DNA from: Promethearchaeia archaeon
GTDB lineage: Archaea > Asgardarchaeota > Lokiarchaeia > Sigyniarchaeales > SOKP01
Length of the DNA: 64,000 nucleotides
Direction of reading: 5' to 3'
Assembly: GCA_029856145.1 (NCBI GenBank)
Contig: JAHQWK010000002.1
Span: 64,001 to 128,000, forward strand
A program made the translations under genes and the position numbers. The notes under the pieces are model-generated. The model did no database searches and was not told the DNA's origin. It saw nothing but the letters and a program-made list of their open reading frames with translations. This document shows positions 17,540 through 37,442 of this stretch, piece by piece (within the stretch, counting starts at the first letter, position 1; the number at the start of each line of letters is the position of its first letter).

Positions 17540-17588
17540 TTTTGTCTTCTAGTTATAGGATATATAATAAAAAATCAAGTAAAAATAA

Positions 17589-19022
17589 TTATGTGTTTTT
17601 CTCAATTTGATCATCTAACTTAACAACTTTAAATAATCTTACACAATGACTAAATGTGGTATGATTAACATTAATATTTAGTACGTCCTTCATTAACTGA
17701 CTAATGTCATTTTGGGATAAGTCTGGGTTTGTTAGCGTTATGCAGGTGGCAACAATTATAGGTTCTCGTGTCCGAAATCCAATCTCGTTCGCCATCTCAC
17801 ATATTTTCTCAATGCTATCGCCAATAGTTTTAGGCTTGGAGGCAATACGAAATAATTTATGGTTAAGGTTTAAAGATTTGATGTGATACCTTAGTATTCG
17901 AAAGATTTCCTTAGCATAATGGGAATCTAAATAGGGAAATTTACTGGCATATTGGGTAAAGGTTCCTTTATGACTTATTTTCTGGAATAAACAACTCAAA
18001 GAAGAACTCCCTGAAACATCTATTAGTCTCGAAATATCGACTAGTGAGGCTCTGGGGCAAGCGAAAGCAATAGATACTCCAACAATTCTTTTATGATCTC
18101 GTTTAATATTTCTTCGCTTCAATAATTTAATAAAGTAATTAATGTTCTTTCTAATGGTTTTTATATTCCTATGAATGAGAAATTCTGCTCTTGATAGTAG
18201 ATTATAGTTACTCTGTTTCTTAGTTATCCTTTCAATTATAATATTCAGCAATAGATGGGATCGCTCATTTAAATTTTTTGTCCATAGAGAAGATCTCTCA
18301 ATTAAAGGGGCAATAAGAGAAGTACTAGGGCAAGGCACTGGCTGAAATGTCATCAACGACACTAATTTTTTTCTTAATAAATATGCTGAATTAATGGGGG
18401 ATTGGAAATTGGGAATGTCTAATTTTGGGATAATATACTTATTTATTTTATTCGAAACTGAACCACTCGAAACGCAGATCCTTTCACAAATTTGGGCCAT
18501 ATTGATTGAAGTAATCCCTGAAACAATCAATGTTAAGACTAGAATAACGCCCGCACTAAGTTCTTCTGAGGTAAATTGGAGTAAGGGATAAAAATGGTTA
18601 TAGAGCAATTTAGCGTTATCAGTAAAATGGTGGTGCAAGTCAAAATAGCTTACAACATCCTCTATAATTGCAAAAACTAACCTAGAATTATCACGATTTT
18701 TAAAATCAAGATACAAAGGAATTAAATTTTTCATGTCTTTTACAAGTTGACTATAAGTTAAATCAAGATTCTGGGAGAATATATGCCTATTAACCACTAC
18801 AGCATTTACTTTTAAAAACATATAGAGAATAGGGGGAAACGCAAGATCTATATTGCGATATTTAGTATATCTCCTTATTTTCGAGTGTACTGTATTAAAT
18901 ACTGATATAAACTCTTCAAATAAATGACTGTATTGAATTTGGTCTATGTCGGTTAGAGTCTGGATAAATTGTTGCCTGAGTACATTATAATTATTCTTGT
19001 TAATTTGAATAGATTGAGTCAT
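17589..19022 (-). CDS. Divergent TFB/TFIIB-like protein with about four cyclin-fold repeats and no Zn ribbon
   Basis: Repeated TFB-core-like helices, e.g. ELSAGVILVLTL..INMAQICERICVSSGSVSNK and EPIIVATCITL..LSQNDISQLM. Start moved to ATG 19022 because of an upstream AGGTGA and a promoter 29 nt upstream. Confidence 0.55.
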   Translation of the reverse strand: MTQSIQINKNNYNVLRQQFIQTLTDIDQIQYSHLFEEFISVFNTVHSKIRRYTKYRNIDLAFPPILYMFLKVNAVVVNRHIFSQNLDLTYSQLVKDMKNLIPLYLDFKNRDNSRLVFAIIEDVVSYFDLHHHFTDNAKLLYNHFYPLLQFTSEELSAGVILVLTLIVSGITSINMAQICERICVSSGSVSNKINKYIIPKLDIPNFQSPINSAYLLRKKLVSLMTFQPVPCPSTSLIAPLIERSSLWTKNLNERSHLLLNIIIERITKKQSNYNLLSRAEFLIHRNIKTIRKNINYFIKLLKRRNIKRDHKRIVGVSIAFACPRASLVDISRLIDVSGSSSLSCLFQKISHKGTFTQYASKFPYLDSHYAKEIFRILRYHIKSLNLNHKLFRIASKPKTIGDSIEKICEMANEIGFRTREPIIVATCITLTNPDLSQNDISQLMKDVLNINVNHTTFSHCVRLFKVVKLDDQIEKNT

Positions 19023-19043
19023 GCAAGATGAATCACCTATTCC

Positions 19044-19060
19044 TTTATAAAGAAAAAATT
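19044..19060 (-). promoter_or_regulatory. T-run/TATA promoter (AATTTTTTC TTTATAAA)
   Basis: First T of the TATA box is 29 nt before ATG 19022; no co-oriented upstream gene. Confidence 0.65.
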
Positions 19061-19224
19061 GGAAAAAAAATGAAAGAATAATCTGGAAATTATTTTGGTA
19101 TCTGAAGAAACCCAAAATTTTACTATTCTGGATTAAAATTAGCTTAAATAAAGGCTTAAATATAATTGGAAATATATCTTCATAACAAGAGATAAATAAT
19201 CAATTCTAAATTAGAGATAAAAAT

Positions 19225-20052
19225 ATGGAGAGTAGTGCCATTACTACTAAATGTGTGAGATGTGAGTCAGAAGAAAACATAGAAAATTATCTTCATACCA
19301 CACCTGATTTAGCGAGTTTTAGACGTATCTCAAGACATGTTACCAGGTATACTACTTACAAAGGAACGGGAGGAACTGGATATGTACCGGTCTGTTCTCG
19401 GTGTATTAAAAAGTTTTCTAATTGGAAAATATATAATAATATTAATCTTGGTTTAACTGGAGTTATCTGGTTATTTTTTAGTCTTATGTTGGTCTTATTA
19501 ATGATAGCGGGCCCAACTTCATATATCCCAGGTTTAAAAGATATACCCTTTGAGATCATTATAACTGGATTTGGAGTCTCTCTGACTCTGGTTATAATTA
19601 GTGTAATAATTTCTTTTTATCTTAATATTGTCTCAAAATCTAATCCAAAGAATATTATTAATATCAGACGAAGGACGATTCGAGTTAAACCTATTGGAGG
19701 CTCTAAATGGATTCCTATACAAGAGTGGATTCCTGAACGCCCTCAGGATTTTCAGACGCAAGGTTCCTTAAATTTAACGAAAATGACAAGTCTAGAAGAC
19801 CATGTTATAGAATCTAAAGAAAGAGAATATGGAGAACATTGTGAAAACGCATTATATGATTACTTGGAGAGTAATCGAGGGACTGCGTATACCGTTAAAG
19901 CATTGGAAAAAAAATTGAAGGATTTTATTGTAGATCCAAAAGAAAGAGAATATGGTAAAGAAAATCTTGAAAACGTCTTAAATAAAATGAGAGGAGTAGG
20001 GAAAATACATTCTATTAAAAAAAATGAGGAAACACACTATTTCTTCCCATGA
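19225..20052 (+). CDS. Hypothetical membrane protein (N-terminal Zn finger, 2 TM, C-terminal winged-helix-like domain)
   Basis: CVRC..CSRC, two hydrophobic helices, C-terminal LYDYL..YTVKAL..L..GKI..YF pattern. Confidence 0.7.
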   Translation: MESSAITTKCVRCESEENIENYLHTTPDLASFRRISRHVTRYTTYKGTGGTGYVPVCSRCIKKFSNWKIYNNINLGLTGVIWLFFSLMLVLLMIAGPTSYIPGLKDIPFEIIITGFGVSLTLVIISVIISFYLNIVSKSNPKNIINIRRRTIRVKPIGGSKWIPIQEWIPERPQDFQTQGSLNLTKMTSLEDHVIESKEREYGEHCENALYDYLESNRGTAYTVKALEKKLKDFIVDPKEREYGKENLENVLNKMRGVGKIHSIKKNEETHYFFP

Positions 20053-35724: not shown

Positions 35725-35771
35725 AAACAACTGAAATCTTAACTCTTATTTTTTTTTAGCTTATATGTACC

Positions 35772-36737
35772 CTAACCAAGAACTTCAAGAGTAGATTTTT
35801 TCGTAAAATTAAGCTCTTTTTCATTTGTATATGAATTTTCCTTAATAACTATATTAGATAATTTAACCTTATCTCCGTCGGTAATCAATTTTACACACTC
35901 AACCGCCTGAAGTCCCCATATAGTGACTTTAATTGATGCCGACTCATCTGATAGCACCAATTTAAACAGAAAGGACTTATCACCATTCTTTAATGTTAGT
36001 TCCTTAAAAAATTCGACCTCAACTGTTCCGGTAATGAATCTAACAAATCCTTCCTTTTCATAAAGGCTCTGAACAGTCCATTTAGATTTCTTTTCTTTGC
36101 TTTCTCGTACAGGCGTGCTCGAAGGTTCTGAGGACTTGTTCTCTGAGACTTTTAATTCTACAATTTCATGAATTTTCACATTTTCAGGGGCTAAAATAAT
36201 ATTTCCTTGTCTCCCTAGATGAACTTCTAAATTCCCGTCCCTTCCCTTCTTTGAATATGCTCCAACTACTTGAATTATCTCACCCTTCTTAAAGAGCTCA
36301 TTTTCCATTATTTCCACGCTTTCATTCCACAAGACAACTTTTATACAATCAGAGTTATCACAGATCTGAAATGAACCCACACGTCCCGGAGTATTATCTT
36401 TCTTTACAAAATCTCTGACCTGATACACAGCCTCCACTCGACCTGCTATTACGATATTTCTCAAATTTTCCAGAACTGAGGAAATCGGGATAGCAGAATC
36501 GTTATAATCAATGACCTCTTCAGCTATATGATTTAAAATCTCCTTATCTTCTCTCGAATCTACATCGATCCCATGCTCTTTTGCAATCAAGTATAAGATA
36601 GCTCGCTTTGTCATAAATCCTTGAAATTCGGTCTCTTTTTCGTTTACATGTTTGGTGAGTTCCTTTTCACTGATTCCTGAGTTCAATAAAGCTTGATATA
36701 TCTCTTCAGCTCGTTCTACCATTTTTTTCACATTCAT
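35772..36737 (-). CDS. rpa: Replication protein A-like ssDNA-binding protein (2 OB folds)
   Basis: Helical N-domain (EK..EFQGFMT..AILYLIAKEHGI); OB motifs GRVGSFQICDNSDCIKVVLWN and LSDESASIKVTIWG. Confidence 0.88.
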   Translation of the reverse strand: MNVKKMVERAEEIYQALLNSGISEKELTKHVNEKETEFQGFMTKRAILYLIAKEHGIDVDSREDKEILNHIAEEVIDYNDSAIPISSVLENLRNIVIAGRVEAVYQVRDFVKKDNTPGRVGSFQICDNSDCIKVVLWNESVEIMENELFKKGEIIQVVGAYSKKGRDGNLEVHLGRQGNIILAPENVKIHEIVELKVSENKSSEPSSTPVRESKEKKSKWTVQSLYEKEGFVRFITGTVEVEFFKELTLKNGDKSFLFKLVLSDESASIKVTIWGLQAVECVKLITDGDKVKLSNIVIKENSYTNEKELNFTKKSTLEVLG

Positions 36738-37377
36738 TTATTTTATTCAAAATTAAATTTTTGAAAATTAAGTCCTTTTTGTAATTTACAGTTAATCCAA
36801 TTTTATTTCGCGTTCTATGAAAGGCATATGCAGAACAGCTACATAATACTCGGAGGTTAGATTGAATGATTTTACACTCAGAACGAGAAGAGCAATCATC
36901 TAAAAGGTCAGTAACAAAAACCACCACTGCGACTTGAGTCATGATTTGAGGCCTAAAACATAAATGATCTAATTTCAGCTGCAATCTCCTTGCATTCTCT
37001 CTTGCCCTTCTATAGTCGAAAACGGGAGCTAATCGGTGAAATTTATGTAAATATATACGAACCTTTATTCCTTGATGTTTAGAAGTAAGAAGGTTAGCAT
37101 TCTGTTTAAAGAACTTTCTAATTCGTACAAGGTTAACCAAAAAACGAGTAATAAACCTATAAACTAACACTCTTGGAACGTTTAAAGCTTTACTTATCTG
37201 AATGTACTCGGAATCTGTGATTGCACGTATTTTTTCCTTAGAGGTAACAAACCCGATGTTCCTGAAAAGATAATCCAATACAACAAGGCGAAGTGCTTCT
37301 GTGTCTTTAAAATATTTTGTATAATACTCGTTAACATCCTGAGCCTCAATATCTGGCTTCTTTAGAGTCTGAGTCAT
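36706..37377 (-). CDS. Divergent TFB-like cyclin-fold protein
   Basis: RPQIMTQVAVVVFVTD..IIQSNLRVLCSCSAYAFHRTR resembles the TFB C-terminal cyclin/HTH repeat; overlaps rpa. Confidence 0.45.
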   Translation of the reverse strand: MTQTLKKPDIEAQDVNEYYTKYFKDTEALRLVVLDYLFRNIGFVTSKEKIRAITDSEYIQISKALNVPRVLVYRFITRFLVNLVRIRKFFKQNANLLTSKHQGIKVRIYLHKFHRLAPVFDYRRARENARRLQLKLDHLCFRPQIMTQVAVVVFVTDLLDDCSSRSECKIIQSNLRVLCSCSAYAFHRTRNKIGLTVNYKKDLIFKNLILNKINECEKNGRTS

Positions 37378-37426
37378 GATTTATCCAATGATTCTATTTA
37401 ATCTTATATTATGAATATAGCAAGAG

Positions 37427-37442
37427 TATTTAAACAAAAAAT
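37427..37442 (-). promoter_or_regulatory. T-run/TATA promoter (ATTTTTTG TTTAAATA)
   Basis: 57 nt before ATG 37377; divergent context. Confidence 0.65.

Follow-up and report, generated by a model that had tools for sequence, protein, structure and literature searches.

Whether TFB paralogues can be true alternative sigma factors, with a promoter sequence of their own, is an open question. Haloarchaea have several paralogues of TFB and of the TATA-binding protein (TBP) per genome that divide up the promoters between them, and to our knowledge these TFBs keep a canonical recognition helix and overlapping purine-rich TFB recognition elements (BREs). In bacteria, the streptococcal ComX/cin-box system couples a dedicated initiation factor and a private core promoter to DNA-processing genes that include CoiA, SSB and a recombinase. 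The closest described systems are those of the Sulfolobales: the TFB3/Orc1-2 response (Ups, Ced) ties a TFB paralogue to DNA-transfer and repair genes, with a T-rich element and a weak BRE (PMC6101594, PMC5817253), and in the cell-cycle regulon of S. acidocaldarius TFB2 a full TFB paralogue drives a wave of genes, with a delayed negative-feedback protein among the targets (bioRxiv 10.64898/2026.09.06.749720). The best-studied of the TFB-paralogue cases either have a near-normal BRE or depend on TFB1. Here we analyse a 64-kb stretch of DNA (hereafter the window; C2:64001-128000 of a 3.55-Mb Lokiarchaeial (Promethearchaeota) metagenome-assembled genome with 31% guanine plus cytosine), in which an island of genes for DNA handling and MglAB GTPase signalling is preceded by promoters having a run of T's in place of the BRE.

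A class of promoters in which a T-run occupies the BRE position

When 232 upstream regions taken from other genomes were searched by expectation maximisation, with no T-run assumed, the result was TTTTTYVTTTAWAWA with near-invariant T's, and the consensus relearned in this way is TTTTYVTTTAWAWA. The window contains eight exact copies, all within 19044-37440 and none in the rest of its 64 kb, against 0.115 expected in the intergenic DNA of the island (dinucleotide shuffles, n=200, with a maximum of 2). In the rest of the genome there are 50 sites for 27 expected, and 35 of its 3283 genes (~1%) have the motif upstream. The initial annotation, made from the DNA letters alone, had proposed seven clear sites of the form A-T5-7-S-TTTAWAWA. 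This strict pattern has six matches in the window, at the distances it gave from the start of the TATA box (19022, 29 nt; 20115, 29; 25006, 32; 30276, 55; 34726, 46; 37377, 57), while the seventh, before xpd (31 nt), departs from it solely by missing the leading A. Four sites are indeed in divergent contexts (19022, 25006, 30276 and 37377). Among the variants that had been listed, the one before 27070 proved to be an exact match to TTTTYVTTTAWAWA and is the eighth site; that at 27210 is a near-match with one mismatch, but faces a 35-codon antisense open reading frame (ORF); and those at 17539, 20908 and 25772 (coiA) depart from the consensus and are not supported. A possible ATT start at 34726 lies in frame, although in other assemblies ATG 34771 is called.

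Among 61 related loci, 293 of 378 sites aim at the start of a gene, 13 at the end of one and 9 lie inside genes, whereas the reversed pattern gives 20 matches, 16 of them inside genes. The motif precedes the first genes of units (mglB 38/41, radA 20/26, and in exact form the gene for a 223-aa protein, 46/58, mostly at 47-51 nt) and is not found before the internal genes mglA (0/42) and that of the 423-570aa protein (0/34). It is kept in orthologues down to 33% protein identity. For example, the promoter of 20115 is retained at 21-22 nt in four of seven close orthologues from other genomes, with one-base variants in two to three more, and the two nearest XPD paralogues have the motif at 22-24 nt (one exact, one variant), whereas housekeeping XPDs have no motif at that position. 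Between the end of the TATA box and the start codon, 21 nt is by far the most common distance (26 cases, with only 11 closer). If the transcript is leaderless, the box then spans -29 to -22; such spacing fits leaderless transcripts and is near the canonical archaeal TATA position of -26 to -30 (PMC5817253). The T-run itself keeps a constant distance of one base to the TATA box, occupying the BRE position. An opposite-strand reading, in which each site would be the promoter of a divergent gene, was rejected, since site orientation is constant where the upstream gene is co-oriented.

We thus regard TTTTYVTTTAWAWA as a predicted core promoter composed of a normal TATA box and a T-run at the BRE position. 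The non-canonical class put forward by the initial annotation is upheld by enrichment, orientation, spacing and orthologue conservation alike, and the statistics and conservation show that this class heads transcription units of a cluster of recombination and membrane genes in one Lokiarchaeial family.

The gene cluster served by the promoter

The homologues of the window's core genes form a conserved cluster of up to ~45 kb, with the mglB-mglA-570aa genes present in 35-41 of the 61 loci. Its DNA genes are RadA, RadB-like, RPA, FEN1, Hel308, Hef, a helix-hairpin-helix protein and CoiA (the last with homologues in 5-7 cluster loci), and its other genes encode MglB/MglA, Zn-finger proteins, a 1267-aa membrane protein whose HerA/VirB4-type domain is weak (weak DUF87 match) and whose Walker A is degenerate, and small, unassigned membrane proteins. 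A second, divergent Fen1 in Asgard archaea is noted in a recent paper (PMC12680538). In the host genome the native cluster consists of the end of contig C22 plus the start of C23, and the insertion in the window carries a second, incomplete copy of it plus cargo. A regulon private to the island, as had been proposed, is therefore not supported, but the proposed regulon of DNA-handling and MglAB genes with an alternative-TFB logic is supported. A literature search on Asgard promoters, TFB paralogues, this gene cluster and DNA uptake found no description of it, most subscription papers lying outside its coverage.

What the cluster does can be judged from its gene content, which tips the balance slightly towards DNA exchange and recombination. 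The bolder proposition, in which a sigma-like cascade of Lokiarchaeia would serve recombination and the exchange of DNA between cells, is for now doubtful. The cluster could instead be a domesticated or still mobile element, similar to integrative and conjugative elements, with its own transcription programme rather than a host DNA-exchange or repair response. Its patchy presence, the 2-4 copies in some genomes, the insertion between housekeeping genes both here and in genus g2, and the HerA/VirB4-like gene would all suit such an element. However, integrase, relaxase and att repeats were all absent from the sequences scanned, a closed chromosome (G189) retains the cluster although its parts lie at distant loci, its flanks are conserved among congeners, and viral contigs have no match to the 223-aa gene. 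We consider a mobile element unlikely; in any case, the choice bears on the purpose of the cluster and not on its promoter mechanism.

The candidate reader of the T-run promoter

The genome has seven canonical TFBs, all outside the island, which has none (PF00382 search). It also has TFBX, a 411-aa paralogue encoded at C22:121229-122464, which aligns with canonical TFB over 261 columns (HHalign 97.9%, E 3e-13) and possesses both a Zn ribbon (weak PF08271; four invariant Cys) and the two cyclin repeats. Its recognition helix reads IRMSTIQxQV, versus VTEVTL/VR in all seven canonical TFBs; both this helix and the B-reader have been replaced and are conserved in their new state. In comparisons covering 134-135 genomes of one Lokiarchaeial family, close TFBX homologues occur in 97 of 134, with none outside the family at E<=1e-15, and other families of the class have no motif excess over the control (48 vs 64; 84 vs 123). 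Within the family each additional copy of TFBX goes with ~5.5 more sites of excess (t 3.5, related genomes not being independent), and genome G183, with four copies of TFBX and no 223-aa match, has an excess of 54. By co-occurrence, TFBX tracks the motif better than do the cyclin-fold proteins encoded in the window, and it probably is the factor that reads the T-run promoters. A closed 4.32-Mb sister-family chromosome (G143 C1:1729000-1788000; L273-L276) has the whole cluster and a more distant TFBX with another helix, and there, in a small sample, the TATA box of most promoters at 20-24 nt is preceded by GAT or by some other triplet rich in G and T; these differences fit a factor and an element that may have changed together.

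With respect to the promoter of tfbX, it has a textbook purine BRE and TATA box in members of the genus. Among 55 Zn-ribbon TFBX rows none has an upstream T-run and 23 have a purine BRE, while several ribbon-less TFBX derivatives do carry an upstream T-run. A purine BRE without a T-run rules against autoregulation, and the autoregulated programme that had been envisaged is accordingly not supported. We used this promoter as a clean purine-BRE control; the canonical promoter signal is weak genome-wide (own gene calls), and tRNA upstream regions are too few and noisy for the purpose. The ordinary A-rich BRE plus TATA promoters cited by the initial annotation are clear at 61720, but not at 19225, 25269 or 62870.

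Perhaps the T-run is instead an operator or shape element for a separate regulator, such as a repressor or an activator of the Orc1-2/DNA damage-responsive element type, with ordinary TFBs initiating. Seven canonical TFBs are available for this, and Sulfolobus DNA-damage promoters have a T-rich hexamer, A(N)TTTC, together with weak BREs (PMC5817253). Nevertheless, in Sulfolobus the hexamer is found upstream of the BRE (-44 to -39), whereas here the T-run is within the BRE itself and a TFB with a changed helix is encoded in the cluster, so that a separate regulator appears quite improbable.

Three further proteins concern TFBX or TBP. There is a second, divergent TBP of 199 aa (L137:1198-1794; G000 C13:79702-80229), without an upstream T-run, that could be a partner of TFBX; a regulator that is Lrp/AsnC-like by sequence pattern has a single TBP repeat inserted in its middle (L138:985-2055; G000 C9, ~102.5 kb; PF00352, E 1e-20); and a 918-aa LRR protein (L083:13054-15810; G000 C7:138054-140810) has an N-terminal Zn ribbon that shares 54% identity with the TFBX ribbon over 33 aa.

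The two local cyclin-fold proteins

Two genes of the island, for proteins of 477 and 223 aa, had been singled out as TFB-like. As proposed, both contain cyclin folds, a single one in the case of the 223-aa protein; no match to Pfam TFIIB is seen for either. In the 477-aa protein, residues 11-219 superpose on 1AIS_B (VIA Z 16.1, root-mean-square deviation (rmsd) 3.2, 188 aa aligned), the N-terminal half having two cyclin repeats in the TFB-core arrangement, and the match to the TFBX profile (HHalign 99.1%) indicates that this half is derived from the TFB paralogue on C22. The C-terminal half, examined for two further cyclin repeats, has a predicted local distance difference test (pLDDT) score of 42-83 in four sequences and no profile match to TFB. 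The protein lacks any CxxC pair, N-terminal Zn ribbon or B-reader, its model beginning at cyclin helix 1, and the in-frame upstream extension of its ORF is not conserved in the copy on C14. At full length it was found solely in this genome among 135 of the family, in two copies.

The 223-aa protein, by comparison, is encoded in 77 of 134 family genomes. Its model has a pLDDT of 88.9; residues 99-195 match TFIIB (Z 8.3, rmsd 3.0, 89 aa), and the top five VIA matches of the cyclin fold (98-195), which ends in a helix-turn-helix (HTH), are TFIIB, TFB or Brf (Z 7.3-8.3, middling for a helical domain). The N-terminal domain, also helical but shorter, gave no alignment with a cyclin repeat. The terminal HTH is nearly invariant over 77 sequences and none of the 77 homologues has a Zn ribbon. 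No link of this protein to TFB or TFBX emerged from profile-profile comparison, and Pfam and PDB sequence searches detected neither local protein as TFIIB; only structure and profile chains do. The intact clusters of two 100%-complete genomes, G147 and G149, have ~13 motif sites each; the 223-aa protein was not detected in them, and they encode, downstream of a T-run promoter, another ribbon-less derivative (232 aa).

The Zn ribbon is needed for RNA polymerase recruitment and for TFB3 function (PMC6101594). Ribbon-less proteins with a TFB fold recur among the targets of the regulon, which suggests a modulator, and the local proteins are more likely to be such downstream modulators than readers. 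The initial annotation favoured the opposite, with one or both of them acting as a sigma-like factor that autoregulates through its own T-run promoter. Their TFB-type folds and T-run promoters would accord with this, as would the nearly invariant HTH of the 223-aa protein and its covariation with motif excess, and a small Zn-ribbon protein of the cluster could provide the ribbon in trans. Against it stand the missing Zn ribbon in both, the restriction of the full-length 477-aa protein to one genome, and the motif-dense clusters of G147 and G149 in which the 223-aa protein was not detected. A local sigma-like factor seems about as improbable as a separate regulator. As for terminators or chance products of AT-rich DNA, three island sites do follow a co-oriented gene in a genome poor in G and C, but shuffles, orientation, fixed spacing and orthologue conservation reduce that idea to near nothing.

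We therefore return to TFBX as the putative reader. A housekeeping TFB would make TFBX from its purine BRE promoter, and TBP with TFBX would then read the T-run promoters and turn on the whole gene set, in a cascade rather than a self-activating loop. Inserted genes would have retained their own promoters and hence plug into the host TFBX circuit, with both local cyclin-fold proteins being presumptive targets. The ribbon-less proteins might provide delayed negative feedback by occupying TBP or the promoter without recruiting the polymerase; that they dampen the response is, in our estimation, an even bet. As a whole, T-run promoters, a TFBX reader, a cascade, an imported second copy and ribbon-less modulators appear to be the best explanation, and a reasonably probable one. 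Several points weigh against it. A motif excess (as much as 26) occurs in some genomes that lack a TFBX match and is missing from others that have one, the assemblies being fragmented; the 223-aa gene also correlates with this excess (t 2.2) and its product, given the strong conservation of the HTH, may be a co-reader and not an inhibitor; and the weak DUF87 match and degenerate Walker A of the 1267-aa protein leave DNA transfer a putative output.

The insertion and its features

In view of the adjacency of the AMP phosphorylase and 432-aa TPR genes in 21 of 29 congeneric genomes, the segment between them in the window (~16.1-40.5 kb; Table 1) is an insertion. Contamination or misassembly was rejected, since the insertion recurs at >=99.7% in independent assemblies, joined to host genes. 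The native order (FEN1 remnant, 223-aa gene, rpa, mglB, mglA, 570-aa gene) is kept with cargo in between, and copies are 75-98% identical to their C23 counterparts. The left end is a deleted copy of a C14/C31 module, with 91% nucleotide identity between 16322..17539 and C14:7117-9869. No terminal repeats were found in this decayed insertion, nor an integrase among the ORFs scanned, several of which have no assignment. The window RPA clusters with those of two other species and not with the C23 copy (support 92/90, which is not decisive). Probably the insertion was imported in pieces from related Lokiarchaeia, stepwise import and illegitimate joining being the simplest reading that we can infer.

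Table 1. Features of the island in window coordinates; distances from promoter to start codon are counted from the end of the consensus site (those of the initial annotation were counted from the start of the TATA box).
Feature	Coordinates	Strand	Remarks
~24-kb insertion	16100..40500		ends approximate; between AMP phosphorylase 14502-16040 and 432-aa TPR gene 40537-41835
296-aa membrane gene and 103-aa stump	16322..17539	-	downstream of 477-aa gene; stumped gene intact (905 aa) on C14
477-aa TFB-core protein without Zn ribbon	17589..19022	-	
T-run promoter	19044..19057	-	21 nt before ATG 19022; divergent; same site in C14 copy
T-run promoter	20080..20093	+	21 nt before GTG 20115
Stand-alone ATP-cone protein, 146 aa	20115..20555	+	weak PF03477
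45-aa Zn-ribbon microprotein	24869..25006	-	two CxxC pairs; weak Zn_ribbon_Elf1
T-run promoter	25031..25044	-	24 nt before ATG 25006; divergent
CoiA-like nuclease	25772..26782	+	PF06054; no consensus site upstream
54-aa Cys-rich ORF	26906..27070	-	behind T-run promoter; region 82% identical to C23:7586-7856
T-run promoter	27097..27110	-	26 nt before ATG 27070; exact consensus
mglB-mglA-570aa operon	27284..30276	-	cluster core; Arf-like GTPase by Pfam
T-run promoter	30324..30337	-	47 nt before mglB; divergent
T-run promoter	32646..32659	+	23 nt before xpd
Second-copy XPD/DinG helicase	32683..34662	+	Pfam; same slot between rpa and mglB in G225
T-run promoter	34674..34687	+	83 nt before ATG 34771 of 317-aa TPR gene
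RPA paralogue, two OB folds	35772..36737	-	75% to C23 copy
223-aa conserved protein	36706..37377	-	N-terminal helical HTH-like domain and one cyclin fold; no Zn ribbon
T-run promoter	37427..37440	-	49 nt before ATG 37377; divergent
3' remnant of cluster FEN1 paralogue	39537..39907	-	abrupt junction ~39907; 49-65% to cluster FEN1

The stand-alone ATP-cone protein matches the N-terminal parts of other ATP-cone proteins of this genome, NrdD among them, at 44-47%, and the 45-aa microprotein has no homologue among the related loci examined. Strain variants split abruptly at two points near the right end (window 39907; L142:6217; L146:3059), a second strain having a different gene from base ~39907 onward (L142); these breakpoints are a variable site in the population. 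The nearby 470-aa LRR gene (window 38074-39486) is split into 306 + 156 aa in one other assembly (L012:479-1872), and window 53017-55614 encodes an 865-aa protein with internal tandem repeats of ~75 bp and a paralogue on C25. On C14 (L078:39-14363), HerA and a 1189-aa Mre11-Rad50 fusion lie directly upstream of an intact module of 477-, 296-, 905- and 620-aa genes, of which C31 has a further 609-aa copy. Elsewhere in the genome, a 12,732-aa ORF (C7:18965-57458) directly follows a 96-aa gene with a T-run promoter; more T-run sites (C7:4188, 5589, 18598), close to a TFBX fragment and a gene with a ParB domain, suggest that a further island is linked to the regulon.

Comparison with known systems

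The window's own share in this picture is modest: imported gene blocks keep their promoter and can join a host circuit. The system as a whole is the first candidate for an inducible recombination programme in Asgard archaea, and it allows a clean in vitro test, with a near-invariant element, a candidate with a changed helix and a built-in purine-BRE control promoter. Its ribbon-less cyclin-fold proteins, as possible regulators, bear on the origin of cyclin-fold regulators.

How, then, does it relate to the described systems? Like the TFB3/Orc1-2 response it would tie a TFB paralogue to recombination genes, but the Sulfolobales T-rich element is upstream of the BRE and here the T-run replaces it. 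TFB3, which acts together with TFB1, has a Zn ribbon and a coiled coil but lacks a DNA-binding HTH. In the window proteins this architecture is reversed, and TFBX has both cyclin repeats and a new helix, so that none of them belongs to the TFB3 family. Moreover, Sulfolobales radA is TFB3-independent, whereas the present regulon includes a second RadA/RPA/FEN1 set. The TFB2 programme is driven by a full paralogue, but TFB2 promoters have a BRE similar to that of TFB1 with another spacing, and tfb2 is its own target (bioRxiv 10.64898/2026.09.06.749720); here the BRE sequence is replaced and tfbX lacks the motif. The feedback protein of TFB2 is the ribbon-helix-helix protein aCcr1, while the candidate feedback proteins here are TFB-derived. 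Compared with the haloarchaeal TFBs, specificity appears to have been rewritten and linked to a cluster. The likeness to ComX and its cin-box is one of analogy only, the machinery here being TBP/TFB and DNA uptake putative. The regulon thus resembles both the TFB3/Ced and the TFB2 programmes, is a member of neither, and, as far as can be judged from sequence, appears to function like an alternative-sigma regulon.

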